Positions 10,307-57,112 of a stretch of 64,000 nucleotides of DNA are shown piece by piece. Below the pieces are notes generated by a model. It saw only the letters and a list, made by a program, of their open reading frames with translations, did no database searches and was not told the origin of the DNA. Made by a program: the position numbers and the translations under genes. How positions within the stretch are numbered: the first letter of the stretch is position 1; the number at the start of each line of letters is the position of its first letter. This DNA comes from Candidatus Saccharimonadota bacterium (GTDB lineage: Bacteria > Patescibacteriota > Saccharimonadia > Saccharimonadales > JAXHNE01). The stretch is from positions 22,073 through 86,072 of the forward strand of contig JAXHNE010000003.1 of NCBI GenBank assembly GCA_034520885.1, in the 5' to 3' direction.

Positions 10307-10330
10307 TGTTATATAACTAGTTATATAACA
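10307..10330. repeat. 24-bp perfect palindrome TGTTATATAACTAGTTATATAACA, copy 1
   Basis: Self-complementary by inspection; starts 5 nt after the rplA stop. Confidence 0.9.
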
Positions 10331-10813: not shown

Positions 10814-10840
10814 ATAAAAAAACAAGCTTGAGGCTTGTTT
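10814..10840 (-). terminator. terminator-like hairpin (T-run on minus strand)
   Basis: A7 followed by AACAAGC-TTGAG-GCTTGTT. Confidence 0.35.
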
Positions 10841-10904
10841 GCCCAAACAGTTCGGTCAGAGCCCGGAACAACGCAACTACCGAAGACGGAGGACGGACAA
10901 CTGA

Positions 10905-11165
10905 CAACTACCACCCCTCATCTATCGCCTATCATCCATCAACTATCAATCCTCATCTATTGCGACGAAGTCGCTCGCCATCTTCCACCTTCCAAATTCC
11001 ATCTTCCACCTACCAACTACCACCTACTAACTACCACTCATCTATCATCCATTGCGACGAAGTCGCCTACCACCTACTAACTTCCATATTCCAACTTCTA
11101 CCCTCTAACCTCTAACCTCTAACGTCTACCCTCTAGCATCTAACCCTTAAAACCTATAAACTAAC
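10905..11165 (+). repeat. G-depleted tract with 7-nt periodicity, interrupted by two GCGACGAAGTCGC hairpins
   Basis: CCA recurs every 7 nt from 10978 to about 11036. CTA recurs every 7 nt from 11098 to 11163. ATTGCGACGAAGTCGC occurs twice (about 10959-10974 and about 11051-11066). Confidence 0.8.
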
Positions 11166-11169
11166 CAAC

Positions 11170-12603: not shown

Positions 12604-13317
12604 TTGGGAGTTTATAGTAATAAACAAATTCGTGAGGCGATAGAAAACGAGCATATTGTCTGCGTGCCGTTTAATCCGAGACACGTCAGCCATGCCAGTA
12701 TGGACGTAACACTGGGGTATTACTTTTATCAAACCGACCAGGCCAAAAAAGGCTATGTCTACAATCCGTTCGATGAAGCCGACGTCCGGCGCTATTTCGG
12801 AGAGGTACAGCAAGCAGTGCCGCACAAGGACTGGTGTGCCGCCAACGGCGTACGTTTACTCGAAGGCGTCCCGGGAGATCACCCGGTAATCCCGCTCGGC
12901 CCGGGAGAGCGAATCCTGGCTCACACCCACGAGTTCTTCGGTATCAAGCCGCCGGGAGCGTACGAGGTGAAATCCCGTTCCAGCTGGGGGCGCAACGGCA
13001 TCGCGGTATGTTTTGACGCCGGCTGGGTCGACCCGGGGTATATTAATCGCTTAACCCTGGAAATTTATAACTTGAACGAACACGAAACAGTGCTGCTTCC
13101 GGTCGGCGAACGAATCGCCCAGGCGGTCTTCTTAGAAACCGGTGAGGTCGAAGGCAACTACGGCGAAGGGCGTGACGACGGTATGAGCGGTAAGTACCAA
13201 ACCGGCACCAACCTGGAAGAGCTGATTTCCGGATGGACGCCGGAGCAGATGCTTCCCAAAGCGTACAAGGACAAGCGTTCTCTCCCGGGAGTGATAAAGG
13301 GTTTAAAAGCCCGGTAA
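12604..13317 (+). CDS. dcd: dCTP deaminase (dUTPase-fold)
   Basis: TTG start; motifs SMDVTLG, GWVDPGYINRLTLEIYN, VGERIAQAVF typical of the Dcd family. Confidence 0.8.
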   Translation: MGVYSNKQIREAIENEHIVCVPFNPRHVSHASMDVTLGYYFYQTDQAKKGYVYNPFDEADVRRYFGEVQQAVPHKDWCAANGVRLLEGVPGDHPVIPLGPGERILAHTHEFFGIKPPGAYEVKSRSSWGRNGIAVCFDAGWVDPGYINRLTLEIYNLNEHETVLLPVGERIAQAVFLETGEVEGNYGEGRDDGMSGKYQTGTNLEELISGWTPEQMLPKAYKDKRSLPGVIKGLKAR

Positions 13318-13394
13318 CCCCCGTTAAAAACGGTGATGGAGATTTATATGAGTCAGGACACGAGCAAACAAACACGGAAAGGGCCTTTAGCGGG

Positions 13395-15740
13395 ATGACA
13401 CAAGCCGAGGAACAAGGTGTGTTTTTTGTTATTGAAGGAACTGACGGTTCCGGCAAAGGTACTCAGTTTCAAAAATTAGCGGAACGGTTAAGCGGTGAAG
13501 GCTACGACGTCGCCACCTTTGACTTTCCGCGGTACGACCAACCCTCCAGCTATTTCGTACGTGAATATTTAAACGGCAATTACGGCTCCGCGGAAAATGT
13601 CGGCCCTTACACCGGTTCACTGTTTTACGCTTTGGATCGTTACGCGGCCGCCCGGCACATACGCGAAGCGTTAAACCAAGGCAAGATCGTACTGGCCAAC
13701 CGTTTCAGCGGCTCTAACATGGCGCACCAAGGAACGAAGTTCCAACACAGCGAAGAACGGCGCGGCTATTTCATTTGGCTGGATAATTTGGAATTCCAGA
13801 TGCTGGACATTCCGCGCCCGACCAAGTCGTTCGTGCTGCGCGTTCCGGCGGATATCGCCCAAAAACTGGTCGACCAAAAGGGCAAGCGCGAATATACCGA
13901 CAAAAAACGCGATTTGCACGAGGCAGATATTGACCACTTGCGAAAATCGGTAGAGGTGTTCGACGAACTGTGCGAACTCTTCCCCAGGGATTTTCAGCGG
14001 ATAGATTGCGTGCGGGATAAAAAGTTGATGGACGTTGAGCGGGTACACGAACAACTGTATAAAACCATTGAGTCGTATCTGCCCAAACCGAACGAAAAGC
14101 CTGGCTCTCAAGACTCCAAAGCGGCAAAAACGGAAGTCAAAACTACCAAGGGCGACGTTGAATACGTCACCAAGGATGACGAAGGCATTTACCGCATGAC
14201 GAAAGCCGGCGAGGATTACTTAAGTGATATCGTTACCAGCACCGAAGATAACGTCTACGCTTTTACCGAGGAACTGCCGCCATTGACCATTTCCGCGGCC
14301 ATGGCCCGCCTCTCACGCCGGGGTGACGATATGCGCGTGACCATTTTGGACGAGTTCACGCACGCCGCGCAAAAGGACGAAAAACTGCTTAAAAAGGTGA
14401 TCACCGCTTACGGGGACGACTCCGTGCAGCAGCTCGTCGGGCAACACGTCGTGGTGGAGGAAGCCTCCAACCTGCTGACAAAAAAGCTGGAATGGGGGCG
14501 TTTGGCGGCCTATTTGGAGCAGTCCACGCGCTACATTTACTTTGATCAGAAGGATCGCCGCGGTAAATACAAATATGTCGTACCCGATCACTTCGATGAA
14601 CCCACCAAAACGGCGTACGTAAAATCCATGGACACTATTTTTGACGGGTATTCCAAGCTGGTACGCCAACTGACCGATTATATTCGCGGCAAGGACAAAA
14701 CGCCGGAAAAAGAGCGTGACGGGGCGTGGAAAGGCGCGACGCGAGCCCAGGCCTGTGATGCCGCCCGCCCGCTGTTACCGGTGGCCACCAAGTCCACGGT
14801 GGGTATTTACGCCTCCGGACAGGCACTGGAAAGCCTGATCATGCACTTAATGGCCGACGAACTCCCGGAAGCCAAACGAACCGGTGAAAAACTCCTCAAG
14901 CACGCCCGCGAAGTCATCCCCACGTTTTTGGAAAGAGCCGACAAGCCGGATCGTGGCGGAGCCACCATTGCTTATTTGGCGAACACGCGAAAAGGCGTTG
15001 CCGAACTAGCCAAAAAAGAACTCCCGGAAAACTATGCCCCGGAAACCGAGGCGGTCACTCTTAATTCGCACTGGCCGAAAAATGAGCTCGACCTGGTGCC
15101 GGATATGCTTTATGAACACAGCAGCTTGCCGCTGGAAGACATTAAAAACGAAGTCCGCACCTGGCCGATCGATAAAAAATACGAAGTGTTCGACGCTTAC
15201 GTGGGCGAACGCCTGAATCGGCGGCACAAGCCGGGGCGAGCCATTGAAAAAGCGCATTACAGTTGGGATTTGGTGTGTGATTACGGGATTTTCCGTGATT
15301 TGCAGCGGCACCGCATGGTGGATGATTTGAATTGGCAAATACTTACGCCGCGTTACGGATATGACACGCCAAATATCGTGGAAGAAGCCGGTTTGAGCGA
15401 TCTGTTCCTGGCTTGTTTCGACGAAAGCCTAAAACTCTACAGCGCGCTACAATCCGCCGGTTACGAGCACGAAGCGCAATACGCCACGCTACTGGGGCAC
15501 AAAATGCGCTGGAAAGTGACTTACAACGCCCGTGAGGCCTTCCACTTGCACGAACTACGCACCAGCCCGCAAGGACACCCCGGGTATCGCAAACTCGTAA
15601 AAGAAATGCACGACAAGCTGTGCGAAGTCCACCCCGTACTTGGCGAAGCCATGAAATTCGTCAACAAAGGCGAAGATCCCGAATTATCGCGTCTAGCCGC
15701 GGAGCGCTACACCCAATTCAAGCTAAAAAACCTGTCTTAG
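13395..15740 (+). CDS. fusion protein: thymidylate kinase (N-terminal) plus duplicated ThyX-like FAD-dependent thymidylate synthase (C-terminal)
   Basis: The Tmk part carries FFVIEGTDGSGKGTQ and DRY. The ThyX-like halves carry AAYLEQSTRY, LQRHRMV...TPRYG and HLHELRTSPQGHPGYR. Start set at the in-frame ATG 13395 because the track ORF (13233) overlaps the dcd end. Confidence 0.7.
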   Translation: MTQAEEQGVFFVIEGTDGSGKGTQFQKLAERLSGEGYDVATFDFPRYDQPSSYFVREYLNGNYGSAENVGPYTGSLFYALDRYAAARHIREALNQGKIVLANRFSGSNMAHQGTKFQHSEERRGYFIWLDNLEFQMLDIPRPTKSFVLRVPADIAQKLVDQKGKREYTDKKRDLHEADIDHLRKSVEVFDELCELFPRDFQRIDCVRDKKLMDVERVHEQLYKTIESYLPKPNEKPGSQDSKAAKTEVKTTKGDVEYVTKDDEGIYRMTKAGEDYLSDIVTSTEDNVYAFTEELPPLTISAAMARLSRRGDDMRVTILDEFTHAAQKDEKLLKKVITAYGDDSVQQLVGQHVVVEEASNLLTKKLEWGRLAAYLEQSTRYIYFDQKDRRGKYKYVVPDHFDEPTKTAYVKSMDTIFDGYSKLVRQLTDYIRGKDKTPEKERDGAWKGATRAQACDAARPLLPVATKSTVGIYASGQALESLIMHLMADELPEAKRTGEKLLKHAREVIPTFLERADKPDRGGATIAYLANTRKGVAELAKKELPENYAPETEAVTLNSHWPKNELDLVPDMLYEHSSLPLEDIKNEVRTWPIDKKYEVFDAYVGERLNRRHKPGRAIEKAHYSWDLVCDYGIFRDLQRHRMVDDLNWQILTPRYGYDTPNIVEEAGLSDLFLACFDESLKLYSALQSAGYEHEAQYATLLGHKMRWKVTYNAREAFHLHELRTSPQGHPGYRKLVKEMHDKLCEVHPVLGEAMKFVNKGEDPELSRLAAERYTQFKLKNLS
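15711..15739 (+). repeat. 3'-end repeat of the tmk-thyX gene, copy 1 (functional end)
   Basis: ACCCAATTCAAGCTAAAAAACCTGTCTTA. Confidence 0.9.
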
Positions 15741-33481: not shown

Positions 33482-35020
33482 TTAATTTACGGTTAATGGG
33501 GCGTGGCCAAGTGGTAAGGCACCAGTTTTTGGTACTGGCATTCGCAGGTTCGAATCCTGCCGCCCCAGCCAAGAAGGATTTTCAGATTTTTCAGACAGAA
33601 CGCGCCAGCGATCGCCAAAGGCGAGGCTGGCGTTTTTGTTGGTCAGGTGGCGGTTCGTTCCGATTTTTCCGACAAACGATTTGATTTCATCATAATCGTT
33701 TGAAACAGCCAGTTTTTCAGCGTGGTGAGCGTCTCGAACCCATTGTTTCAATGGTTCGATCCAATTGTTCCCCTTTTGCCCAAAATCGGCTTTCTTTTGT
33801 TTCAAAGCCAATTTCTGCTTGATAAGCTCGTCTTTCTTGGCGAGGTAAACTTGTTTTTCAATGTTGCCGTCCAAGAATTCATTGACGAGCTTGTCCAGCT
33901 TGGTTTCGGTGGCTTTGATGCGTTCTTCAAGATTTTGAGCAAAAGCCTGCGAAGACTGGCTATTTTCCTTTCCCCAGACATCAATCTGCGCCAGCATCTT
34001 TTCTTGCCAGTCTTCGCTGATAGCAACTTTTGAGATTAACGACTTTAACTGCTCCAGCAATTTATCATCTCGCACATAGCCCTGCGAGCAAGGCACAAGC
34101 CGTTTCGAACAGCGATAGTAGGCATAAGTCCCACCGTTGCCACGAGCATATTGCGCCGTGATTGCCGCACCGCACTCACCACAAGTAAAAAGTCCGGTAA
34201 ACGGAAAGTTATGACTACGCTTGCTCTTTCTCGGCTTGGCCTTGGTCTTTAACACCTTTTGCACTTTCTCAAAAGTTGCTATGGGAACAATTGGCGGAAA
34301 ATCGCCCTCGTATACTTCGCCATTTCGCTTGATAAGCCCGATATACACAGGATTTATTAGGGTCCTCTGCATCATCGATTGGCTAAGCGGTTTTCCGCTG
34401 GCGCTCACCACGCCCCAAAAACTCAGGCGCTGGCGCAGACTCTCCAGACTGTGTCTGCCATCAGAATATTCTTCAAAAGCTCGTTTGAGTATGCGAGCCT
34501 TCACAGAGTCAAGTTCAATGTTGTGTGTCTTGAGATTGTTGACATAACCAATGGGAGCTTTACCAGGCCACTCGCCGCGCCTGAGTTTTTGGCGAATCCC
34601 ACGCTTTACATTCTCCGACAGGTTGTCGGAGTAATATTTACTTTGTCCAAAGGCCACTTGGAGCATAAACAAGCCTTGCGGAGTTGGCTCAAACCAAAAG
34701 GTTGGAAAGCGCAAAGCAACAATTTTGCCAGTGTCTATGCTGTAAATGATCTGCCCGCCATCCATACTATTTCTAGCTAGTCGGTCAGGATGCCAGGCCA
34801 GTATCCCGACTGGCTGTTTACTCTCGTGTATTTTAGCGATCATTTCGTTAAAGACAGGTCGGCCTGGTTGCTTTGCGCTTCTGCTCTCGGTGAAAGTTTC
34901 GGCAATGGCGATATTCTCTCGCTTAGCAAAGTCCGCCAACTCCGCAAGCTGCGCCTCTATGCTCATAACCTGGCGTTCTTCGTCCTCGCTGGACTTTCTG
35001 GCATAGAGAAAATACTTCAT
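33482..35020 (-). CDS. large serine recombinase (true C-terminus uncertain)
   Basis: Catalytic N-terminus MKYFLYARKSSEDEERQ, recombinase domain, Zn-ribbon CGECG...YYRCS, then a coiled coil. The last roughly 55 codons are read from IR-A and antisense tRNA-Gln. Confidence 0.85.
   Translation of the reverse strand: MKYFLYARKSSEDEERQVMSIEAQLAELADFAKRENIAIAETFTESRSAKQPGRPVFNEMIAKIHESKQPVGILAWHPDRLARNSMDGGQIIYSIDTGKIVALRFPTFWFEPTPQGLFMLQVAFGQSKYYSDNLSENVKRGIRQKLRRGEWPGKAPIGYVNNLKTHNIELDSVKARILKRAFEEYSDGRHSLESLRQRLSFWGVVSASGKPLSQSMMQRTLINPVYIGLIKRNGEVYEGDFPPIVPIATFEKVQKVLKTKAKPRKSKRSHNFPFTGLFTCGECGAAITAQYARGNGGTYAYYRCSKRLVPCSQGYVRDDKLLEQLKSLISKVAISEDWQEKMLAQIDVWGKENSQSSQAFAQNLEERIKATETKLDKLVNEFLDGNIEKQVYLAKKDELIKQKLALKQKKADFGQKGNNWIEPLKQWVRDAHHAEKLAVSNDYDEIKSFVGKIGTNRHLTNKNASLAFGDRWRVLSEKSENPSWLGRQDSNLRMPVPKTGALPLGHAPLTVN
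33497..33571 (+). tRNA. trnQ: tRNA-Gln (anticodon TTG), CCA encoded
   Basis: TGGGGCGTGGCCAAGTGGTAAGGCACCAGTTTTTGGTACTGGCATTCGCAGGTTCGAATCCTGCCGCCCCAGCCA. Anticodon stem CCAGT/ACTGG with loop TTTTGGT, T-arm GCAGG-TTCGAAT-CCTGC. Confidence 0.9.
33566..33657. repeat. IR-A left arm (92 bp)
   Basis: Perfect reverse complement of 35139-35230 by hand comparison; includes the last 6 nt of tRNA-Gln. Confidence 0.9.
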
Positions 35021-35138
35021 TTGTTTATGCTCCTAGTCCGTAAAGCGTGGGGTTAAAAACTGTCTGTTTAGTGTCGCTTGCGACGCTTTGGAAAAATCGG
35101 AATACAAAAACTTGTTTTTGTGCGTTGCCCGGCAACGC

Positions 35139-35230
35139 CGAACCGCCACCTGACCAACAAAAACGCCAGCCTCGCCTTTGGCGATCGCTGGCGCGTTCTG
35201 TCTGAAAAATCTGAAAATCCTTCTTGGCTG
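35139..35230. repeat. IR-A right arm (92 bp)
   Basis: Reverse complement of 33566-33657. It is an inverted copy of the recombinase 3' end placed upstream of the recombinase start. Confidence 0.9.
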
Positions 35231-35404
35231 CAGTTGTTGAATGAAGCTCGAACCCTGTTCGAGCGAGATAATTAAATCCCGCCCTGCGGCTCCGCCCGCT
35301 GGCATAGCCAGCGGCCCAAACCAAAAGATTTTTCTTCATGATTGTTTTGAATTTCGGCGGGTGGTTTTTTCTTTTTAATTGAATTCGAAAAATATTTTGG
35401 TTTG
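35225..35404. repeat. IR-B left arm (180 bp)
   Basis: Perfect reverse complement of 39099-39278; its outer end TGGCTG overlaps the IR-A right arm. Confidence 0.9.
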
Positions 35405-35507
35405 ACGAGCCGACCTTACAATAGTCCCATTCTTCTGGTAACATTGTAATGTAGTTTGAGGCCAATTTTCTCATTCCACCCATACAATTTAATGTTACTA
35501 TTTCAAT

Positions 35508-35699
35508 ATGATTAAATCAACTAAAATAAAGCAATTACGAGAAGATTTAGGGCTATCACGAGAAAAGCTAGCTCGACTGGCGGATGTTTCTAATAATACT
35601 CTCATCAACATAGAGTCTGGCAAACAACAAAATCCAACTATTGAAACTATGAAAAAAATAGCAAAAGCGCTTAATGTGTCGATTGAGGAGTTAGTTTAA
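35508..35699 (+). CDS. XRE-family helix-turn-helix transcriptional regulator (63 aa)
   Basis: IKQLREDLGLSREKLARLADVSNNTLINIESGKQQNPTIETMKKIAKALNVSIEEL is a typical HTH_3 sequence. Confidence 0.8.
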   Translation: MIKSTKIKQLREDLGLSREKLARLADVSNNTLINIESGKQQNPTIETMKKIAKALNVSIEELV

Positions 35700-35701
35700 T
35701 T

Positions 35702-36337
35702 ATGAAATTCGATTCACAAAAAACAATAGAGCAACTTGTGGACTATCTCATGCCAGAGTTAACGCCGTATGAGGTGGCGATGTATATACTGCTGTTCCGC
35801 AACACATATTTAAGGAGTGCAAAATCCGAAATACGAATAGGAAAAAGAACAATAGCTGATCTTTATGGTAAAGGCTCGCGTGGAGAAAAAACGAATTATG
35901 CACATGTAACAAAGCTCGTGAAGGGGCTCCAATCAAAAGATTGCATCCACATTGGCGATACAAACCGAGACGGTACCCTATATACGATATTTCTCCCAAG
36001 TGAAATACCACTGGTGAAGGAAAAATTATCCATTACTGCAGATCCAGCAGAAGAAGATTACTATACTGATCCTGAAAAAAGAAAAGAAATACTTGAAAGG
36101 GATAACTATACCTGCCACTACTGTGGTGAGAAAGTGACCGAAGATAATGCAACATTGGATCATCTATTTCCACAACATAAAGGCGGCAAACACGGAAAAG
36201 ACAACCTAAAGACAAGTTGTTTGATTTGCAATAGTATTAAGTCTGGCAAGACCTATGAAGAAGCTGCTCCACACCTGTTAAAAAGCATTCAAGATAGAAG
36301 ACAAAAACAAGTCGATCGAACAAAGTCTGGAAAGTAA
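35702..36337 (+). CDS. HNH endonuclease with N-terminal winged-helix-like domain (211 aa)
   Basis: CHYCGEKV...DHLFPQHKGGKHGKDNLKTSCLICNSIK (HNH, Cys4 type). Starts 2 nt after the HTH stop. Confidence 0.8.
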   Translation: MKFDSQKTIEQLVDYLMPELTPYEVAMYILLFRNTYLRSAKSEIRIGKRTIADLYGKGSRGEKTNYAHVTKLVKGLQSKDCIHIGDTNRDGTLYTIFLPSEIPLVKEKLSITADPAEEDYYTDPEKRKEILERDNYTCHYCGEKVTEDNATLDHLFPQHKGGKHGKDNLKTSCLICNSIKSGKTYEEAAPHLLKSIQDRRQKQVDRTKSGK

Positions 36338-36339
36338 TA

Positions 36340-38976
36340 ATGTCGGTTTCGGTGAAGACACATGCAAAAGATTATCTTCTTGAATATAAAACCAAGAATG
36401 ATATGCCTCAATGGTTAGCGTTGTTAATCCAGAAGACAATTGACACAAATGCAAAACTCTCTGATGGAGAGAAGAATCTAGTGTTCCAAAAACTACTCGA
36501 AGAAAATGGAATTAATACTCAGCAAGGCCTTGAAGAGACCAAGAGCGACAAAGGAATAGACAATAAAGAAACAATAGCCAGTTCAAAAGAACAAAAGCTT
36601 ACTTTGCAAAAAATTACTCATGTAAAAGGTGTTAATGCTCTTATTCCGAATCAGTCAATTACTCTAAGTTCAGCGTGTACTGTAATCTTTGGACTTAACG
36701 GCGCTGGTAAAAGTGGATACTTTAGAATACTCCATGAACTTGCAGGTGGAATTAAATCTAAAAACATTTTAGACAATATTCATAACCAAGGCGACGGTTT
36801 AGAAGTTAATGTGGATTTTTTATTAGATAACAGAACGCAAAAACCCTTCAAATGGGATGATAAAACACTGCGCGGTATTGCTCCGTTTGATCGGGTAAAA
36901 GTTTTTGATACGGAATATTTACCAATTTTCTTAAATGAGCGTGAAAGCTCAGTAAATATAGAGCCGCTTGGGCTTAATTTTTTTCAGACAATTGCAACAG
37001 TTATCGACGGATTTAAGGAAAAGCTAGACCAAGATCGACAGCAAGAACAAAACACGTCCCCTGACCTACAAACATTAATAGAAGTTATTCACTCTAATGA
37101 ATTGAAAATATTACTTGACAAGGATTCATTAACAAAGCAGGAAGAACAACTATTAAATAGCAATAAGCACTTTTCAAATGATGACACAGAAAAACTCACT
37201 AAATTGAAAAACGACAAGACTTTACTTGAAAAAAACAATACGGAAGACAGTAGAAAAGTGTTAAATCAAGAAAAGAAGGAGATTGATGATCTCGATAATC
37301 ACTTATCTTGCCTAAAAACAAACCTTGAAAAACTAACCAAGGATATCTCATCTGCCATAAATAATTATCTAAAAACTAAGAAAATAAGGGATGAGCGGCT
37401 AAAACAATTTGAGGTTTTAAAAAACATACCTTCTCAAGACAGTGAGGAGTGGCAAGGTTTTGTTGAGTCAGCGAAAGAATACGGTACAGAAATTGACCAG
37501 TCCACGTTTAACAGTGACGAAAAATGTATCTATTGCCATCAGCCATTGAGTGATGAGGCAATGAAGCTCATTCAGGCGTATGCTCAATATCTGGATGATC
37601 AGTCTCAACAAAATTTTAAAGACTCTGTTGATAAAGTTACCGAGCTGAAAGAAGAAATTGATGATTTAATCACGGATTTTGCTTTTTCTGAAAATTTGGA
37701 AAAAGCATTGGCCAAGATACACAATGCTCAGGAACAAGACTACAAGACGTTGGTTGCTCAAATTTTAACAGCAGCAAAGAGCCAAAAAGGAGGTTTAGAT
37801 AAAGCACTAAATGAAAAAACTGCTGTAGCTGAAAAGTATACGCTAGATTTATTTAGCGCAGACGAAAAACTTGAAAAGCTGTCAGAATCAAAGCAAAAAG
37901 AGCTGGATGGCTTGCAGCAATCATATGCGCAAAAATCTAAAAAAATAAATGAGATTGTAGTAGAGATTAACAGGCTTGAAGACAAGCGAAATATTACAAA
38001 ATGGAAAACAAAGATTGAAAATTATTTCTCAACTAGCAAGTGTGTACAAAAATATTCAGCCCTTAATCAAGCAATTAGCACAAGGGGAATTACAGAGCTG
38101 GGCTCAAAAGCACATGATGAGCTTTTGACAGATTCAATAAAAAAATCTTTTGAGGAGGAGTTAAAGGCTCTTGGCAAAGATATAGAAGTTAGTCCTGAAA
38201 CAACAGGAGCAGGAAAGGGTTCTGTGCGCACAGGACTTAAAATTTTAGGAAAAGATGTGCGTACTATCCTAAGTGATGGCGAGCAAAAAGCAGTTGGCCT
38301 TGCACTATTTCTAGCAGAGATTGAAAGCCAAAATGATAAAAGCCCTATTGTGTTCGATGACCCTGTTACAAGTATTGATCATGAAGTAGCCGATGCATTA
38401 GCAAAAAAACTTATGAGTTTGTCATCTGACAGACAAATCATTGTCTTTACTCACAACAAACTGTTCTATGACTCATTAGTCTATTGGGGAGGAAGTCTTA
38501 AGGATGAAAAAGATAATAAAACTCATCATGTGTGCAAAAACTACACTCAAAAAGGTTGTAGCGGCCAAGGTTGTCACGTTTACACTTATAAAGTCGATAG
38601 AGAAGCAAAGGATAAAACGGGTAAAATATTTGAAGCACAGAACGAATCATGCAGTTATTTTATTGAAAAAGCCGAGAAAGAGATGAAGGGCAATTACTCG
38701 TTAAGCAGTGTTTCTGGTTACTTAAAGTCAGCAATCGAATATTATATTGATGAGAAAGTGCTATTAAAAACCGGCTTGATGAAGGATCGACTTCGCGGCA
38801 TTGGAGTGCCCTGGGAAAATCTTAAAAAAATCGATAATAAAGAAGAAATCATCAATAAACCTGAGGCCTACTGGAGTAATTTAAGTAATCGCGGAACTCA
38901 TGTCACTCAAAATTCAAATGAGAACCCTTTGAAAACCGAAGACTTAAATAACATCATTGATTTTTTAAAATCTTAG
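36340..38976 (+). CDS. Rad50/SMC-like ABC ATPase with coiled-coil CxxC hook, AAA_13 / RloC-like (878 aa)
   Basis: Walker A GLNGAGKSG, long Lys/Glu-rich coiled coil with CIYCHQPL in the middle, signature LSDGEQKAV, Walker B IVFDDPVTSID, H-loop VFTHN. The C-terminal tail has LKSAIEYY...NRGTH, reminiscent of the PrrC/RloC nuclease motif. Confidence 0.65.
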   Translation: MSVSVKTHAKDYLLEYKTKNDMPQWLALLIQKTIDTNAKLSDGEKNLVFQKLLEENGINTQQGLEETKSDKGIDNKETIASSKEQKLTLQKITHVKGVNALIPNQSITLSSACTVIFGLNGAGKSGYFRILHELAGGIKSKNILDNIHNQGDGLEVNVDFLLDNRTQKPFKWDDKTLRGIAPFDRVKVFDTEYLPIFLNERESSVNIEPLGLNFFQTIATVIDGFKEKLDQDRQQEQNTSPDLQTLIEVIHSNELKILLDKDSLTKQEEQLLNSNKHFSNDDTEKLTKLKNDKTLLEKNNTEDSRKVLNQEKKEIDDLDNHLSCLKTNLEKLTKDISSAINNYLKTKKIRDERLKQFEVLKNIPSQDSEEWQGFVESAKEYGTEIDQSTFNSDEKCIYCHQPLSDEAMKLIQAYAQYLDDQSQQNFKDSVDKVTELKEEIDDLITDFAFSENLEKALAKIHNAQEQDYKTLVAQILTAAKSQKGGLDKALNEKTAVAEKYTLDLFSADEKLEKLSESKQKELDGLQQSYAQKSKKINEIVVEINRLEDKRNITKWKTKIENYFSTSKCVQKYSALNQAISTRGITELGSKAHDELLTDSIKKSFEEELKALGKDIEVSPETTGAGKGSVRTGLKILGKDVRTILSDGEQKAVGLALFLAEIESQNDKSPIVFDDPVTSIDHEVADALAKKLMSLSSDRQIIVFTHNKLFYDSLVYWGGSLKDEKDNKTHHVCKNYTQKGCSGQGCHVYTYKVDREAKDKTGKIFEAQNESCSYFIEKAEKEMKGNYSLSSVSGYLKSAIEYYIDEKVLLKTGLMKDRLRGIGVPWENLKKIDNKEEIINKPEAYWSNLSNRGTHVTQNSNENPLKTEDLNNIIDFLKS

Positions 38977-39098
38977 ATAGAATTTATAGTGCCTGATTTG
39001 GTTAAATTTAGCATCACATTTACAAGTTTGCCACTAGGCCCGCGCCGAAGGCGCGGCTGGGGTGGGAGCGGCTCCCTTACTTGCTTTAGCAAGGGAGA

Positions 39099-39278
39099 CA
39101 AACCAAAATATTTTTCGAATTCAATTAAAAAGAAAAAACCACCCGCCGAAATTCAAAACAATCATGAAGAAAAATCTTTTGGTTTGGGCCGCTGGCTATG
39201 CCAGCGGGCGGAGCCGCAGGGCGGGATTTAATTATCTCGCTCGAACAGGGTTCGAGCTTCATTCAACAACTGCAGCCA
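39099..39278. repeat. IR-B right arm (180 bp)
   Basis: Reverse complement of 35225-35404. Ends ...GGGTTCGAGCTTCATTCAACAACTGCAGCCA, which resembles a tRNA 3' end. Confidence 0.9.
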
Positions 39279-39757
39279 TTCGACCCTGAAAACCATCCGG
39301 CTCAGGGCGAAGCAGGCTCATGGCTGTAAGCCATCAGACGAAATCATGATTTTTTCAGCCGGAGACTGGAGAATGTCCTGAGCAACGTCGAAGGACTATT
39401 CATGTACTATCTATACATTCTGCGCAATGCGCACAACCGACTATACATTGGGCATACGAACAACCTGGAACGTCGCCTCCAAGATCATAGCAGTCAGTCA
39501 GGCGCTAAGTTTGTTAAAGATTATGGCGATTTTGAATTAGTTTATTTTGAAGAATTTGCCAGTAGAGCCAAAGCCATGAAACGGGAAAAACAAGTAAAAG
39601 GTTGGTCAAGAGCCAAAAAAGAAGCCTTGATTTCAGCCGATATTGAAACCTTAAAGAGTCTTTCAAGAACTCGTGGCAGTAAGGAGGCTCGCCAAAATAC
39701 ACCTTCGTAATCCTATCTACCGCCCTAAGCCTGACGCGATAAAGGACTACACCAATC
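39273..39757 (+). mobile_element. GIY-YIG element: conserved 5' flank, GIY-YIG ORF, conserved 3' flank
   Basis: The flanks recur without the ORF at 42000-42177. The 5' flank and a gene stub recur at about 40660-40789. Confidence 0.45.
39402..39710 (+). CDS. GIY-YIG nuclease family protein (102 aa)
   Basis: MYYLYILRNAHNRLYIGHTNNLERRLQDH...E...KREKQVKGWSRAKKEALI is the classic small GIY-YIG (UPF0213-like) pattern. Confidence 0.85.
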   Translation: MYYLYILRNAHNRLYIGHTNNLERRLQDHSSQSGAKFVKDYGDFELVYFEEFASRAKAMKREKQVKGWSRAKKEALISADIETLKSLSRTRGSKEARQNTPS

Positions 39758-39974
39758 ACTATAAATTCGAGGTTAAAGCAAATATGTACTCACGCAACTT
39801 TGTTATAATTAAAGTGCCTGGTTGCCCGTAAAACTATGGTCAGGCGAGCAACTTGACTGTGTCGAGCTGCTCGCCGGGCCATAGAAACCAGCTTATTACA
39901 AGGAAGGTTGGGCAACGGTATCCAGGCTTTGGACCTGTATGCCCTAGCCAAGTATTGCAACAAAGGAGACCAGG

Positions 39975-40637
39975 GTGTCAAAGAGAAACAAATTCCAGAA
40001 AATTAGGAAATGGTTAGAACATGACATCAATAACAGAGTTAAGCGAAAGACCAGTCAAGATCTTTTCGACTGGCTTATGCTTGCCATATGGGCAGTTGTA
40101 ACCTTATTAATTGCCTTATTCTCTGAAGACGATCTTCTAAACAACTTGATTTTATGGTTTACCGCCTATGCAGTTATCAGATATACAAAAGAGACATACT
40201 GGCTAAAGGTAATTGCACAGAAAGATCTGGAAAGTAACAAGGTGTCTCAAAAAAATGAGTTTATGCCAATCTTAACGTTTAGTGGAGAAGGGTCAATAAT
40301 TCAAGGCCGTAACTTGAACATAAAATTAACAAATATCGGCAAAGGCTTGGCTAGAAATATCACTATCTGGGTTGAGGGACATAAGATCACTGATGGATTT
40401 GATATGGCTCCCGACATTAATAATTATTCACCCGGTGTATCTCCAGAGATAAGTGACGCAATAAATGCATTGACTGCAGAAGAAGGGCGAACAGAGCTCA
40501 ATATGTCTATAGACTATTATGATATATTCGAGAGACACTTCAAGTTAACTGGAGTTAAGTTTCTTAAAGATGATGACATCTCTGGGAATCGATATGTGTT
40601 GCAAAGGTTCACTGGTAAAAGTAAGTTTCCATTTTAA
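39975..40637 (+). CDS. hypothetical membrane-anchored protein (220 aa, GTG start)
   Basis: Two N-terminal TM helices; no motif recognised. Confidence 0.4.
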   Translation: MSKRNKFQKIRKWLEHDINNRVKRKTSQDLFDWLMLAIWAVVTLLIALFSEDDLLNNLILWFTAYAVIRYTKETYWLKVIAQKDLESNKVSQKNEFMPILTFSGEGSIIQGRNLNIKLTNIGKGLARNITIWVEGHKITDGFDMAPDINNYSPGVSPEISDAINALTAEEGRTELNMSIDYYDIFERHFKLTGVKFLKDDDISGNRYVLQRFTGKSKFPF

Positions 40638-40744
40638 ATAAATTCTTATCTCTAATCTAGACCGCAATGCTCAGCCATCAGACAAAATCATCAACTTTCA
40701 GCCATCAGGTTGGAGAATGTTCTGAGCAAAGCCGAAGAACGATC

Positions 40745-40789
40745 ATGTTTGTATATGTCCTTAGGTGTACGAGGCTTGTACAGGATTGA
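40745..40789 (+). pseudogene. truncated GIY-YIG gene remnant
   Basis: The same leader as the intact copy (GGAGAATGTTCTGAGCAAAGCCGAAGAACGATC) precedes ATG. It reads MFVYVLRCTRLVQD-stop, against MYYLYILRNAHNRLYIGHT in the intact gene. Confidence 0.4.
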
Positions 40790-40898
40790 ATATCGAAAAA
40801 CTACCTCTTAGTCTTGAGAGACGAAATCCGTGCAAGCGAAGCGCATCCTGCATCCCCGGCCATTCATTATGTTATAATTTTAATATTAACAATTTGAC

Positions 40899-40996
40899 AA
40901 TATAAAGAGTGCGGGGAGAGACTTGCTTGTTGATCCGCCAGCAACCTATCTAACGACAAGGTGCTCCATCAAGCCCTGTATAGGGAAAGATATACA
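40899..40996 (+). promoter_or_regulatory. SAM-I (S-box) riboswitch aptamer
   Basis: Hand alignment to the S-box consensus. AAGAG junction, kink-turn-like GGAG/UGAU in P2, CAGCAACC...GGUGCU (P3), CCCU-GUAU-AGGG (P4), AAAGAUAU closing P1. GGGAAAG can alternatively pair with the terminator 5' arm. Confidence 0.6.
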
Positions 40997-41006
40997 CAAT
41001 TCTTAC

Positions 41007-41032
41007 ACCTTTCCTTGTACGGAAAGGTTTTT
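41007..41032 (+). terminator. riboswitch expression-platform terminator
   Basis: ACCTTTCC-TTGTAC-GGAAAGGT followed by TTTT, ending 3 nt before the metA ATG. Confidence 0.6.
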
Positions 41033-41034
41033 AA

Positions 41035-41958
41035 ATGCCCATCGTTACGCCAGAATATAGCACAGACACACACCTATTTGAACGTCTCCAAGATTGTGGA
41101 GCAATAGTTATTGATCAAGAGGAAGCAGAGACACAAGACATACGTCCGGCAAAAATTGGCTTATTGAATCTTATGCCGGCACAAGTCATGGAAGCAACAG
41201 AACTTAGATGGCTTAGATTTATTAGTCATACTGTCCTTCAGATTGAACCGGTATTATTGAAGTTTGATGATGACAAACGAGAACTGCCTAATTCAAGTCG
41301 CAGAAACGTTCTTAAAAGATATCATCCATTTTCAGCTGCTACTGAGGATGGCTTAGATGGTCTTATTGTAACTGGGGACAACCAGGAGCGTCAGCAGGAT
41401 GGCACACCACTACCTATGAATGAACTACATTACGCCGAAGATCTAAAAGAGGTTATCGACTGGGCAAACAGCAATATTAGCGCCTCAATCTATTCCTGCC
41501 TTGCAAGCCACTATGCCCTCAACTACCAATACGGACTGTGTCGAGATATTAAAAACAGGAAATTTTTTGGTGTCTACGATCACCATGTTATGAAAGAGTC
41601 AGAAATAACTTTTGCAATGGATGATCTGATAAGGGCGCCACACTCTCGATGGGGGACTATTGCCACAGAGCATCTTGAAGCAGCAGGCTTGGATGTGTTA
41701 GCAGTAAGCGAAGAAGCAGGATGGCTTATTGCAGAAGATGTCTCATTAAGTGGCAACACAAATACTTATCTACAAGGTCATCCAGAATATTGGCGCTACG
41801 ATTTACATGATGAGTACGTAAGAGACAGGCAGTATGTGCCGGAAAATTACTACCCAGGCGACAATCCAGAGTTGCAGCCTATTTTATCGTGGTCTGGTGA
41901 CGCACGATCACTACTCTCGAACTGGATTCAAGGGATATATAAGAGCTATTCTTCGTAG
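41035..41958 (+). CDS. metA: homoserine O-acyltransferase, MetA family
   Basis: IRPAKIGLLNLMP, VLLKFDDD, LDGLIVTG, HSRWG motifs match MetA/HTS. Confidence 0.8.
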   Translation: MPIVTPEYSTDTHLFERLQDCGAIVIDQEEAETQDIRPAKIGLLNLMPAQVMEATELRWLRFISHTVLQIEPVLLKFDDDKRELPNSSRRNVLKRYHPFSAATEDGLDGLIVTGDNQERQQDGTPLPMNELHYAEDLKEVIDWANSNISASIYSCLASHYALNYQYGLCRDIKNRKFFGVYDHHVMKESEITFAMDDLIRAPHSRWGTIATEHLEAAGLDVLAVSEEAGWLIAEDVSLSGNTNTYLQGHPEYWRYDLHDEYVRDRQYVPENYYPGDNPELQPILSWSGDARSLLSNWIQGIYKSYSS

Positions 41959-41999
41959 CTTCTCATTTTACGCCGCAAGAGGTTTCAGACCACAACGCT

Positions 42000-42177
42000 C
42001 AGCCATTCGACCCTGAAAACCATCCGGCTCAGGGCGCGCAGGCTCATGGCTTGCGGCCCAGCCAGCAAGAAATGAGATTGAGAATGTCCTGAGCAACACC
42101 GAATGACTTAGAAGAATATACCTTCGTAATCCTATCTACCACCCTAAACTTCACGTAATAGAGGGCTACCCCAACCA
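42000..42177 (+). repeat. ORF-less copy of the GIY-YIG element flanks, including a tRNA-Gln 3'-end-like segment
   Basis: The 5' flank CAGCCATTCGACCCTGAAAACCATCCGGCTCAGGGC...GAGAATGTCCTGAGCAAC joins the 3' flank ACCTTCGTAATCCTATCTACC through only about 12 nt. 42038-42064 GCAGGCTCATGGCTTGCGGCCCAGCCA resembles the tRNA-Gln T-arm/acceptor. Confidence 0.6.
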
Positions 42178-42189
42178 ATTTTGTAAAAC

Positions 42190-42375
42190 GTGTATTATAG
42201 AAATATGAAATGTCCGGTTTGTATTAAAGAAATGAAAAAAGTTCGTTGGCACATTAGCTATAATCCCGACGAGAACAATAAGGAATACGACTACACCACA
42301 TATCAATGCGTTGATGACGATGTTTGGGTTAATACTGAAATCCCAAAAAATGATTCAAATGAGCACAACGGCTAA
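42190..42375 (+). CDS. hypothetical small Cys-containing protein
   Basis: MKCPVC...YQCVDDD suggests a zinc ribbon; short and uncertain. Confidence 0.3.
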   Translation: MYYRNMKCPVCIKEMKKVRWHISYNPDENNKEYDYTTYQCVDDDVWVNTEIPKNDSNEHNG

Positions 42376-42599
42376 AAGGTTCCTGACCCAGACGCTTAGC
42401 CATGATTTGCACCAAAGGAGATTCGGATGCCTTTTATTCAGGCTTTTACTTTGTGGCTTGTCGTAAGTGCAACAAAAAGTTCTGGTGCTAATTTAAGTCA
42501 GGGTACACACAAGAAAATCTGCGCTTTCTTCTGTCTATTTGCGCCAAGCTGTAAACTAAATGTAAACTGTCTATATATTTCAGAATAGGAGGCACAACA

Positions 42600-43211
42600 T
42601 TGGCTAACGAGGACAGAAAACAAGCCAAAACAGAAGCTAATGCCACCAAAGCTAAATCAAAGGCAATGCGACCATGGTACAAAAAGAAACGCTTCATAAT
42701 TCCAGGCATCTTTTTGGCGTTATTGTTTTTAGCTCCAACTGAGGACACATCACCCACTTCGCAGGGAAATGGTAGTGAAACGACCATAGAAGAGCCAAGT
42801 GAAATGGGGGTAATTCCACCAGGAGAAACCACTTCCTTCGCTGAGTGGGACTACAAAGTAGTAGATATTGAAACTCACAACGTTCTTGGCGATGAAAGGC
42901 CAAGAGGTCAATTCGTTACATTTATAGTTGAAGTTACGAATAATGCGAATACTGAAAGAGAAATCGGTGACTTATTCTATGCGGAAGACAGCCAGGAAAG
43001 AGTGTTCAACTTTAACTCAAGTGCATCATTGGCGCACCATCACACATACGAAGTCGACACTTGGCATTACGAAGCCATAGGTGCATCTTTCTCGGCGAAA
43101 CTGCCTGTAACGTTTGATGTCCCTGAAGATGTTGAAGAACTATATCTTTACCCTCAAGATATCGAGGAAAGAGATTTCGACACCACGAAAGCCATTCACG
43201 TTAAACTTTGA
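42600..43211 (+). CDS. membrane-anchored DUF4352-like protein
   Basis: TTG start after TAGGAGG; N-terminal basic region plus TM, then a beta-rich domain (FVTFIVEVTNNANTEREI). Confidence 0.5.
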   Translation: MANEDRKQAKTEANATKAKSKAMRPWYKKKRFIIPGIFLALLFLAPTEDTSPTSQGNGSETTIEEPSEMGVIPPGETTSFAEWDYKVVDIETHNVLGDERPRGQFVTFIVEVTNNANTEREIGDLFYAEDSQERVFNFNSSASLAHHHTYEVDTWHYEAIGASFSAKLPVTFDVPEDVEELYLYPQDIEERDFDTTKAIHVKL

Positions 43212-43314
43212 TGGCTATTTCTTGAACTGGGTAGTTGCGGACTCTTTTTTTACAAAGTAAAGCAAGCCCACATCACAAATTCGGAGTAATAGCTTATTTT
43301 GATATACTACCCGA

Positions 43315-43863
43315 ATGAAAATTACGTTTGTGACCGGCAATCCACGTAAACTCGGTGAGGCCAAGGAGGCTTGTAAACCTTTCGGCATCGAGGTAGGACA
43401 AACAAAACTGGACATACACGAAATCCAACATCACAACCCAATACAAATTTCAAAACATAAGGCCAACGAAGCGTATGACCTCATAAAAACCCCCTTGGTT
43501 ATCAATGATGCGACCTGGAAAATACCCGCCCTGAACGGTTTTCCCGGCGGCTACATGAAAGATGTTGCGGAGTGGTTCTCACCGGAGGACTTCATTGCAT
43601 TAATGAAGAATAAACGCGACAAACGACTGTGCTGCGTCGAAACTGTAATTTATAAAGATAAAAATGTGGAAAAGATATTCCACAGGGAATTTTGGGGAGA
43701 AGTCTCAAATAACCCCAAAGGAAGCGGCAACTCAATTGAGCAAATAGCTAAGTTTAACGGTAAAACGATCGGCGAACACCGCGATCAGGGGCGTTTTGCG
43801 TTCGATGCCAAAGATTATATCTGGCACGATTTCGCCAAATGGTACTCGGAGTCGAGTCACTAA
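43315..43863 (+). CDS. non-canonical purine NTP pyrophosphatase (Ham1/RdgB family)
   Basis: MKITFVTGNPRKLGEAKE and ALNGFPGGYMKD motifs. Confidence 0.75.
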   Translation: MKITFVTGNPRKLGEAKEACKPFGIEVGQTKLDIHEIQHHNPIQISKHKANEAYDLIKTPLVINDATWKIPALNGFPGGYMKDVAEWFSPEDFIALMKNKRDKRLCCVETVIYKDKNVEKIFHREFWGEVSNNPKGSGNSIEQIAKFNGKTIGEHRDQGRFAFDAKDYIWHDFAKWYSESSH

Positions 43864-43883
43864 AAAGTTATTCTAGGTATTAC

Positions 43884-43906
43884 TGTACAAGGTTGAACCT
43901 TGTACA
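43884..43906. repeat. 23-bp palindrome TGTACAAGGTTGAACCTTGTACA, copy 1
   Basis: 11-bp arms; the second copy lies at 45446-45468. Confidence 0.85.
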
Positions 43907-43974
43907 AAAGCACAAAATGTTATTGACCCAGTTAACACTTGGTGTCATAATAAAGCTTCAGGAAAGGAGACAGA

Positions 43975-44424
43975 ATGCCTGATTTATCACAACCTCAGTA
44001 TTTTATCGCCCAAGCCGAAAGCATGGAAGGTCTAAGATTGAGCGTCTACTATGCTCCACATAGTGAAAATTTTATTGTGCCACAAGAAGTGCTACGTGCC
44101 GAAAGCGCAGACACGCTAGCATCAGGAGCGCTCTGGAAGCTACTAACAGGTAAGTTGACACCAAACCAAGATGATCCGGAAACTACAATTGAACCGAGCA
44201 CTCCTGAAGACGTAAAAGCTAGACTGGATAGCTTTTTACGAACCCAGCCAGCTGATGAGATATTTGTAGACGAAAACGCACCGGAAGGCATCAAAGAGGC
44301 TCTGGAGTCAGTGCAGACTGCTCTCGCAAGTGAAGCACAAACAATGCTTGGAGAAATGTTGGGATTGAAGCTTCCACCTCCTGTAGAAGACGACGACAGG
44401 CCATACCCCGGCCAATACCTGTAA
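43975..44424 (+). CDS. hypothetical acidic protein (149 aa)
   Basis: GGAAAGGAG RBS; no motif recognised. Confidence 0.45.
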   Translation: MPDLSQPQYFIAQAESMEGLRLSVYYAPHSENFIVPQEVLRAESADTLASGALWKLLTGKLTPNQDDPETTIEPSTPEDVKARLDSFLRTQPADEIFVDENAPEGIKEALESVQTALASEAQTMLGEMLGLKLPPPVEDDDRPYPGQYL

Positions 44425-44509
44425 CTGTTCAGCTTTCTTACCTATTCTTTTCATCACCCCGTAAAAGTAGGTCAAAGGCCGCGCCGAAACAGCTTTTTTA
44501 ACACTTAGG

Positions 44510-44533
44510 TGTTATATAACTAGTTATATAACA
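44510..44533. repeat. 24-bp palindrome, copy 2
   Basis: TGTTATATAACTAGTTATATAACA. Confidence 0.9.
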
Positions 44534-44616
44534 AAACCAAGCCAAATGGTGCGCTGTTATGCCAAGCGGCAGTATTTTCAGTATTTAATGTGGTAAGTAC
44601 ATGTTATGTTTAAACC

Positions 44617-45378
44617 ATGAAGAAAAACACCCAACGCTCATTACAAAAGCTAAATATAATTGCCGGAACTTTCCACTCAGTACTTGCTCTAGGAATATTG
44701 TATTTTTCCAATTCATTTTCGCTCCCCGTTACCGCGACGTACTTGGCGGGCCCGCCCGGCTCGGCTTTCACGGATCCTGTCGTACTGTTTAGCGTCCGAA
44801 TTGGCTACGCGGTTGCGTTGTTTTTGGCGCTGTCGGCTACCTTTCACTTTATTGTTGCTTCTAAAACCTTTTTTAAGCGTTATATCGGCGGCTTACATAA
44901 CAAAATCAATGTTTTTCGGTGGGTAGAATACTCAATTAGTTCTACGCTGATGATCTTGCTGATTGCCCAAATTACTGGAATTAGTAATTATGGGGCGTTA
45001 CTAGCAATTGCCGGTGCGAACGCCTCTATGATTTTATTTGGCTGGCTGCAGGAAAAATATGAATCTCCAGGGTCTGGTGGGTGGTTGCCGTTTATTTTTG
45101 GGTGTATAGCCGGGATTGTCCCATGGTTAGTTGTTCTTATTGCCGTGCTTTCACCAGGCTCACCATCAAGCGCTACGCCGCCGGCCTTTGTCTACGGGAT
45201 AATCGTTTCTATTTTTGTGCTGTTTAACTCTTTTGCGCTAATACAGTACAAGCAGTACAAAGCCAAAGGGAAGTGGAAGGACTACCTAAGGGGTGAGCGA
45301 GCCTACGTTATCTTGAGCTTTACCGCCAAAGCTGCGCTTGCTATCCAGATTTTTGCCAACACCCTGATACCGAACTAA
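44617..45378 (+). CDS. heliorhodopsin
   Basis: 7-TM protein. Long stretches match my recollection of the 48C12 prototype: FHF.V.S..FFKRY, FRWVEYS, NASMILFGWLQEKY, FGCIAGIVPW, FVYGII, FNSFAL, KGKW..YLRGERAY. The retinal lysine lies in SFTAKAALAIQIF. Confidence 0.85.
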   Translation: MKKNTQRSLQKLNIIAGTFHSVLALGILYFSNSFSLPVTATYLAGPPGSAFTDPVVLFSVRIGYAVALFLALSATFHFIVASKTFFKRYIGGLHNKINVFRWVEYSISSTLMILLIAQITGISNYGALLAIAGANASMILFGWLQEKYESPGSGGWLPFIFGCIAGIVPWLVVLIAVLSPGSPSSATPPAFVYGIIVSIFVLFNSFALIQYKQYKAKGKWKDYLRGERAYVILSFTAKAALAIQIFANTLIPN

Positions 45379-45445
45379 ATAACATAGGTGGGTAAACCTA
45401 CCGTGTTGGTACAAGAATTAATGTTTTTGTTCCAAATATAACTAG

Positions 45446-45468
45446 TGTACAAGGTTCAACCTTGTACA
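45446..45468. repeat. 23-bp palindrome, copy 2 (centre C instead of G)
   Basis: TGTACAAGGTTCAACCTTGTACA, preceded by an ATATAACTAG half-site of the 24-bp palindrome. Confidence 0.85.
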
Positions 45469-45493
45469 TGTATGTGGGTATCGTTGGGAAAAG

Positions 45494-45517
45494 TGTTATA
45501 TAACTAGTTATATAACA
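45494..45517. repeat. 24-bp palindrome, copy 3
   Basis: Identical sequence, between convergent gene ends. Confidence 0.9.
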
Positions 45518-50256: not shown

Positions 50257-50280
50257 TGTTATATAACTAGTTATATAACA
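50257..50280. repeat. 24-bp palindrome, copy 4
   Basis: Starts at the base after the EamA stop codon. Confidence 0.9.
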
Positions 50281-57088: not shown

Positions 57089-57112
57089 TGTTATATAACT
57101 AGTTATATAACA
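57089..57112. repeat. 24-bp palindrome, copy 5
   Basis: Between the convergent helicase and MIP channel genes. Confidence 0.9.

Follow-up and report, generated by a model that had tools for sequence, protein, structure and literature searches.

A heliorhodopsin (HeR) gene lies in a 64,000-nucleotide stretch of a Candidatus Saccharimonadota genome (contig JAXHNE010000003.1, positions 22,073 to 86,072; the whole stretch is referred to here as the window). It is an ordinary, intact heliorhodopsin gene that stands between palindromes of two families, one of 24 bp (24-mer) and one of 23 bp (23-mer). The 24-mer is not peculiar to the HeR locus and forms a dispersed family. In the reading that we tentatively favor, an ordinary HeR unit lies between palindromes that mark boundaries genome-wide, and the 24-mer is likely the binding site of a small AbrB/MazE-type protein, with copies spread to gene ends. 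As a rhodopsin, the protein offers no novelty: HeRs occur widely in Saccharimonadia, and an annotation of this very sequence exists. What modest interest the locus has comes from its cis-elements, namely, an exactly conserved 24-bp dyad that is linked to a small AbrB/MazE-type gene in Moranbacteria, in Parcubacteria (as a 20-bp core), and in Saccharibacteria.

HeRs are retinal-binding light sensors, and we know of no ion transport by members of this family. The first-pass annotation of the window had identified the 253-residue product as a heliorhodopsin with a Schiff-base lysine, and three comparisons agree with it: the open reading frame (ORF) matched Pfam PF18761 with 292.9 bits (cutoff, 26.7; E value, 2e-87), matched the NCBIfam equivalog NF038020 with 299.6 bits (cutoff, 100), and aligned over its full length and without gaps to 48C12 (PDB 6su3; E value, 4e-98). 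The lysine is K238 in the helix 7 motif S234-F-T-A-K238 (SxxxK) and corresponds to K241 of 48C12, while H20, S73, H77, E104, and S234 align with H23, S76, H80, E107, and S237, respectively; as in 48C12 and TaHeR (PDB 6su3 and 6is6), the equivalents of the key residues are all kept. The window protein differs from 48C12 in having L241 in place of W244 and, with 253 residues, is shorter than its nearest relatives, which have 256. We take Glu107 to be the counterion of 48C12 and assume for His23 and His80 the roles given to them in the 48C12 literature. An identical protein from a Candidatus Saccharibacteria metagenome-assembled genome (MAG) carries the NCBI annotation "heliorhodopsin HeR." The absence of retinal genes from the window, also noted earlier, was confirmed by a Pfam scan that took in about 70 window ORFs and found no blh or crt-type family among them, and retinal for this HeR would need to be scavenged. 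Both points are correct yet already known. Eighty occurrences of HeRs in Saccharimonadia have been published (PMC9166423), rhodopsin-bearing Saccharibacteria without blh have been described, with retinal scavenging proposed (PMC9296517), and a HeR without retinal-synthesis genes alongside is the published pattern for this group (PMC9166423 and PMC9296517).

The HeR gene appears to have its own promoter. The motif TGnTATnnT occupies positions -15 to -7 relative to the HeR start codon, both in the window and in four independent relative lineages (L002, L004, L030, and L032), and its fixation so close to the start codon points to a leaderless HeR mRNA. This conservation implies that HeR would be transcribed alone, leaderless, from a conserved extended -10 promoter, which for Saccharibacterial HeR genes would be directly useful in expression studies. 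The more general layout TGnTAnnnT-N5-8-start precedes ten window ORF starts, seven of which we took as real genes (43315, 44617, 46399, and 53732 on the plus strand and 49260, 46343, and 5175 on the minus strand, comprising the genes for Ham1, HeR, a cupin, a helicase-nuclease, a hydrolase, and two others), and its recurrence indicates probable extended -10 promoters and leaderless mRNAs at these genes. Promoters were called with a sigma-70 consensus scan, and the promoter of the acidic ORF that precedes HeR was called by the consensus scan only. Genes with separate promoters would form separate transcription units, and the palindromes all lie at borders between such separately promoted units, 0 to 116 nt past a stop codon. 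The first-pass annotation had suggested an insulated transcription unit, and this arrangement makes the insulation plausible.

The 24-mer, TGTTATATAACTAGTTATATAACA, has five perfect copies in the window, at 10307, 44510, 45494, 50257, and 57089, and shuffled sequences gave none; the two copies that had been reported on either side of HeR are therefore real and perfect (Table 1). The sequence has the layout T-GTTATATAAC-TA-GTTATATAAC-A, that is, two 10-bp palindromes with a 12-bp offset, and can alternatively be read as two 8-bp TTATATAA boxes 12 bp apart. Beyond the 24-mers, GTTATATAAC does not occur in the window, and neither the 24-mer nor the 23-mer has window copies with one to five mismatches. 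Asymmetric flanks, G[24-mer]AA, are common to four of the five copies and point the same way in all four. When genes were called crudely (75 genes, 62 gaps, and an intergenic share of 11.8%), all five copies were intergenic (P ~2e-5). Each stands where a transcription unit ends at its 3' side, and three were in convergent gaps, which hold 11% of the intergenic bases (P ~0.01 by our own binomial estimate). Four copies are grouped inside 13 kb, and, except for the HeR pair, the sites are 7 to 34 kb apart. The chance that any two of five sites would fill adjacent gaps is 0.29 (0.005 for a gene chosen in advance), and the bracketing of HeR by 24-mers is not compelling by itself. According to the first-pass annotation, palindromes at most gene ends would make the bracketing coincidental. 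This is not the situation in the window, where 24-mers occupy 4 of the 62 gaps, yet the 24-mer is a dispersed family with five window copies, and because it is dispersed genome-wide, chance may account for part of its bracketing of HeR.

The 23-mer, TGTACAAGGTT[G/C]AACCTTGTACA, behaves differently in being specific to this locus. The copies at 43884 and 45446 named in the first-pass annotation are the sole two in the window at up to three mismatches, shuffled sequences gave none, and the two are exact reverse complements of each other, 1562 bp apart. The reported fusion of the right copy to a 24-mer half-site was also confirmed: ATATAACTAGT (45436-45446) continues directly into the right 23-mer, and the whole left half of a 24-mer, interrupted by an insertion, can be recognized next to it. 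A survey of perfect hairpins (minimum arm length, 9 nt) recovered both families; it listed 37 window entries (nested ones counted) versus a shuffle mean of 2.45, and the remaining hairpins were a cluster at 10446-10807 and one each at 19027 and 22681.

Table 1. Genes, promoters, and palindromes of the HeR locus, the remaining 24-mers of the window, and dyads near small AbrB/MazE-fold genes elsewhere
Feature	Position or locus	Strand	Basis or remark
Heliorhodopsin (HeR) gene, 253 aa	44617..45378	+	Pfam, NCBIfam, PDB alignment
Extended -10 element TGTTATGTT of HeR	44602..44610	+	Ends 6 nt before ATG; kept in four relative lineages
Acidic ORF, 149 aa, unassigned function	43975..44424	+	No family match
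Predicted sigma-70 promoter of acidic ORF, TTGACC-17-CATAAT (with TG)	43923..43951	+	Consensus scan
23-bp palindrome, left, center G	43884..43906	.	21 nt past Ham1 stop, 17 nt before acidic-ORF -35
23-bp palindrome, right, center C	45446..45468	.	Between HeR and hydrolase genes, 68 nt past HeR stop
Relic left half of 24-mer, TGTT[ccaa]ATATAACTAG (4-nt insertion)	45428..45445	.	Abuts right 23-mer
24-bp palindrome	44510..44533	.	Pattern search; center ~95 nt upstream of HeR start
24-bp palindrome	45494..45517	.	Between convergent HeR and alpha/beta-hydrolase genes, 10 nt from hydrolase stop
24-bp palindrome	10307..10330	.	4 nt past rplA stop; extends here to 30-bp palindrome
24-bp palindrome	50257..50280	.	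Starts at EamA stop, convergent gene gap
24-bp palindrome	57089..57112	.	Between convergent helicase-nuclease and MIP genes; canonical U-tract terminator ~25 nt on
Exact 24-mer plus 3.5 tandem GTTATATAAC boxes, 12-bp period (L020)	L020/L022, Moranbacteria		Gap of 13 nt
Exact 24-mer	L015, unclassified		19 nt to gene start
Exact 24-mer	L006, Saccharibacteria		~27 nt to gene start; gene copy truncated
20-bp core only, flanks differ	L013, Parcubacteria		~55 nt to gene start
Variant ACTTATATAATTAATTATATAAGT	L017, Saccharimonadales		~43 nt to gene start

The case for a binding protein comes from other genomes. A scan of 185,579 species genomes for the 20-bp core TTATATAACTAGTTATATAA found 16 loci, and a scan of JGI metagenomes found the full 24-mer at three loci. 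Loci from bacteria of the candidate phyla radiation (CPR) repeatedly carry the dyad 13 to 55 nt upstream of a gene for a 55- to 62-residue protein with the AbrB/MazE fold, and four of these small genes exceed the cutoff of PF04014. Across the dyad variants, the invariant part is TTATATAA-N4-TTATATAA. The Saccharimonadales genome with the variant dyad (L017) has further dispersed intergenic copies of the core (L014 and L021). At L015, a degenerate second C terminus of the AbrB-like gene (1081-1173) lies beside a variant palindrome, AGTTATATAACCAATTATATAACT (1048-1071), a layout that suggests that the gene and the dyad may have been duplicated together. Outside the CPR, the 20-bp core was found in a Rhizobiaceae MAG, where it precedes a MarR gene by approximately 21 nt (L016, 3926-3949), and in a Mycobacterium genome with 68% GC, where, as a perfect palindrome of 34 bp, it precedes an F420-oxidoreductase/TetR operon (L018, 3423-3446). 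These two look like operators that arose by convergence for regulators of unrelated families. Wherever it stands beside a transcription-factor gene, the core looks like an autoregulatory operator, with a factor family that varies by phylum. Viral contigs contained no matches to either palindrome (no copy of the 23-mer was found there) or to the AbrB-like protein, and BLAST searches with the palindrome cluster found nothing in phages and one weak, unannotated Rhizobium match among plasmids.

Since the dyad lies just upstream of the small AbrB/MazE gene in other CPR genomes, the 24-mer would most likely be the operator of that protein. The mechanism that we tentatively propose is that the 24-mer is a putative high-affinity site of a small AbrB/MazE-fold protein of several CPR lineages, which in other CPR genomes would use the dyad as its autoregulatory operator and, by analogy with AbrB/MazE proteins, might bind it with one dimer per box. 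In the present genome, copying would have placed the site, together with its identical flanks, at the 3' ends of several units, both sides of HeR included, where a bound protein might act as a boundary or roadblock or where the site might be merely tolerated; the regulator itself would be encoded in another part of this MAG. The 23-mers would be a locus-specific inverted pair of stronger hairpin dyads, one where Ham1 ends and the other where HeR and the hydrolase gene end; one of the two copies may have displaced half of an older 24-mer. There are precedents for such operators. In E. coli, the mazEF promoter carries an "alternating palindrome" that is an operator of the AbrB/MazE type (SpoVT-AbrB fold), and the met-box arrays of MetJ are a formal analogue. 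Like these autoregulatory operators, the CPR dyads are short palindromic boxes in tandem just upstream of the regulator's own small gene. Unlike them, the window sites are scattered perfect copies, most of them at the 3' ends of genes rather than at promoters, and no regulator gene lies in the window. Beside the small AbrB-type genes no toxin partner was noted; the next ORF at L020 looked YbeY-like by eye. The palindrome families are undescribed in the literature that we searched, but they belong to known kinds of elements.

Several observations weigh against the AbrB/MazE operator reading. No AbrB/MazE-like gene was found in the 64-kb window by tblastn or by a six-frame profile search. Three of the five 24-mers are in convergent gaps, with no promoter there to regulate, and the copy nearest to HeR is centered at about -95, off the core promoter; an operator is expected to overlap or adjoin the promoter that it regulates, which is not the placement seen for these sites. 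Identical copies with the shared G[24-mer]AA flanks fit copy-paste better than they fit independently selected operators. The core is also tied to other transcription-factor families outside the CPR, so the binding protein in this genome is not proven. Finally, nothing in the proposed mechanism explains the 23-mer. A stronger form of the proposal is in our estimation unlikely. In it, CPR bacteria would have a previously undescribed system in which a very small protein of the AbrB/MazE fold works with an invariant double-box palindrome of 24 bp, multiplied in some lineages to unit 3' ends as a protein-bound insulator or roadblock; in an equivalent form, the 24-mer may be a new REP-like repeat family with a noncatalytic partner protein. 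The HeR unit would then be one insulated or regulated unit among others. To our knowledge, gene regulation in CPR bacteria is almost unexplored, and the dyad with its AbrB/MazE gene would be among the first concrete regulator-operator pairs proposed for them. If the proposal is true, the spread of the site to gene ends in one lineage would give access to the question of how very compact genomes keep their transcription units apart.

The main rival, which we consider possible although doubtful, is that the 24-mer, and perhaps the 23-mer, is a selfish palindrome similar to repetitive extragenic palindromic (REP) elements or to miniature inverted-repeat transposable elements (MITEs), recently multiplied and kept at harmless 3' ends, with its position around HeR incidental. 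Much of the window fits such an element: the five copies are identical and there are no degenerate ones, four of them have the asymmetric G...AA flanks in one orientation, all are strictly extragenic and enriched in convergent gaps, four lie within 13 kb, the 57089 copy stands beside a canonical terminator without replacing it, and a broken half-copy adjoins the right 23-mer. The resemblance is closest to REPs and bacterial interspersed mosaic elements (BIMEs) mobilized by REP-associated tyrosine transposases (RAYTs), which also are short extragenic palindromes past stop codons and in convergent gaps, in many near-identical copies. However, the approximately 70 window ORFs scanned include no RAYT, IS200-type, or other transposase, no target-site duplication was seen, and 24 to 28 bp would make a very small unit for a MITE. 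Imperfect, species-specific copies are the norm for REPs, whereas the window copies are perfect and the exact 24-mer recurs in distant CPR classes, beside the AbrB-type gene.

A role of the palindromes as plain bidirectional hairpin terminators, or as 3' hairpins that stabilize mRNA, with their identity due to duplication of a convenient terminator, is improbable. Each copy does lie 0 to 116 nt past a stop codon, and the 23-mer would fold as RNA into a 10- to 11-bp stem (approximately -13 kcal/mol; z score, -2.4) downstream of which, at the right copy, both strands are moderately U rich. The left 23-mer hairpin, of about -13 kcal/mol, has no U tract. The 24-mer would form only a weak hairpin with one G-C pair (local folds of approximately -9 to -17 kcal/mol; z scores, -1.2 to -2.5), it has no U tract, and a terminator scan listed neither palindrome family, although normal GC-rich U-tract terminators exist in the genome, one of them right after the 57089 copy. 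For these reasons, we rejected the 24-mer as a canonical intrinsic terminator. Moreover, termination neither needs nor explains 24 of 24 identical positions at five sites and in other CPR genomes.

Other candidate functions of the 24-mer were dropped. Inspection found no -10 hexamer in it that has the -7 T, and the promoter scan placed no site at any 24-mer between 41 and 59 kb; a promoter role was rejected. Identical sequences that form dyads downstream of genes are also known from inverted pairs of the DNA uptake sequence (DUS) of Neisseria and the uptake signal sequence (USS) of Haemophilus, and Saccharibacteria have been reported to be naturally competent. Unlike DUS and USS, the 24-mer has no lone half-sites in the 64 kb and occurs about once per 13 kb rather than about once per kb, and an uptake-sequence dyad was rejected. 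The parS, dif, NrdR, PerR, and LexA boxes, in the forms that we assume for them, match the 24-mer only in composition or in the outer TGTT...AACA. An assembly artifact was rejected as the source of the palindromes, which are also present in an independent Logan assembly and in other samples.

The least likely of the readings is that the 23-mers are recombination sites of a 1.6-kb mobile or invertible module made up of the acidic ORF and HeR, which a site-specific recombinase would insert or flip, possibly at the center of a 24-mer. The first-pass annotation had raised a cassette moved by palindrome-mediated recombination as one of its two options, and our findings do not support it. What speaks for a module is that the 23-mers are exact reverse complements unique in the window, that the right one replaces half of a 24-mer at its CTAG center, that the HeR neighborhood differs in every relative lineage examined, and that HeR borders a low-GC region with a large serine recombinase. 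We compared eight relative HeR loci from four lineages, with HeRs 83 to 87% identical, and none of the eight had palindromes of this kind near HeR. No recombinase adjoins the segment (the nearest, the serine recombinase, is approximately 9 kb away), and neither target duplications nor att-like repeats were found at the segment junctions or against the left end of the putative island described below (chance 9-mers only). Base composition shifts at the right boundary only, with no change at 43884. The independent Logan assembly, from the same sample, gave the identical arrangement in a single orientation. An inverton would be expected to have an invertase beside its inverted repeats and to appear in both orientations; here, the inverted 23-mers are present, there is no adjacent invertase, and two assemblies of one sample agree on one orientation. 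In addition, the promoters of the acidic ORF and HeR are inside the segment, so that an inversion would switch no expression. Walking outward from the edge proteins reached short Logan contigs only.

The nearest matches to the cassette idea among known systems are integron attC sites and the pdif (Xer) modules of Acinetobacter plasmids, in which genes are followed or bracketed by palindromic sites. Unlike in integrons, there is no integrase beside an array, there are no contiguous cassettes, and the boxes miss GTTRRRY by eye. The 24-mers, at 10.3, 44.5, 45.5, 50.3, and 57.1 kb, are too scattered for an integron array, and the window holds no tyrosine integrase, only the one large serine recombinase 9 kb off.

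The acidic ORF had no Pfam, NCBIfam, or PADLOC match, and only two homologues were found, at 56 to 57% identity, one of which is on a long contig with no HeR nearby; the ORF does not behave as a conserved partner of HeR, as judged from these sequences, and the two are unlinked elsewhere. Its AlphaFold2 (AF2) model was too poor for a fold search (predicted local distance difference test score, 58). The Ham1 and alpha/beta-hydrolase genes of the window stand on either side of the palindrome-bounded segment, and the best homologue of the hydrolase, at 55% identity, is found in other gene contexts. At locus L028 of a relative, a single 323-residue ORF (815-1786) joins a Ham1 domain (34% identical to the window Ham1) to a hydrolase-like C-terminal half (54% identical to that of the window hydrolase). 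This fusion is a weak hint that Ham1 and hydrolase genes can be neighbors, as they might be if the segment between them were a cassette.

On a larger scale, a low-GC stretch spans 35.0 to 45.5 kb and has HeR at its right end; its genes have 36 to 47% GC, compared with 52 to 56% immediately to the right, and the compositional break coincides with the palindrome cluster past HeR. The left side has a tRNA-Gln gene (33497-33571) and the large serine recombinase gene (33482-35020, minus strand). Together, the stretch 33482-45500 holds an HNH protein, a PDC-S06 ATPase, a GIY-YIG ORF, an S-adenosylmethionine (SAM) riboswitch with metA, Ham1, and HeR, and the whole is probably a genomic island of mosaic makeup. 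A plausible history is that HeR arrived together with this larger mobile region, or entered it, and did not travel as a 1.6-kb cassette.

The same region contains several repeats. A perfect 180-nt inverted repeat (35225-35404 and 39099-39278) encloses the HNH and PDC-S06 genes, a candidate defense module (PADLOC E value, 2.6e-198), and abuts a perfect 92-nt inverted repeat (33566-33657 and 35139-35230) that encloses the serine recombinase gene; the two pairs are either part of an invertible or mobile module or an assembly artifact. Direct repeats at 39273-39399, 40659-40743, and 41987-42177 (37 nt at 100% identity and 63 to 71 nt at 75 to 83%) sit around the small GIY-YIG ORF (39402-39710) and again on both sides of metA. 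In the independent Logan assembly, the contig seems to break off close to the repeat copy at 42000, a coordinate deduced from locus offsets.

Additional observations concern the left part of the window. The rplK-rplA genes are about 7 kb apart from the L10 leader and rplJL. The approximately 840 bp after rplA (10331-11169) have no convincing ORF and contain a 42-bp palindrome (10446-10487), further hairpins at 10554, 10580, and 10787, and a G-poor low-complexity tract (10900-11150). A search of the HeR locus and of 10.3 to 11.2 kb against Rfam at a permissive threshold gave chance microRNA matches only, and the region after rplA may be a structured RNA or a decayed element. An 835-residue ORF (13233-15740) fuses thymidylate kinase and ThyX (Thy1) domains; it adjoins dCTP deaminase-like and dNMP kinase-like genes, and together they form a nucleotide-salvage cluster with an unusual fusion.

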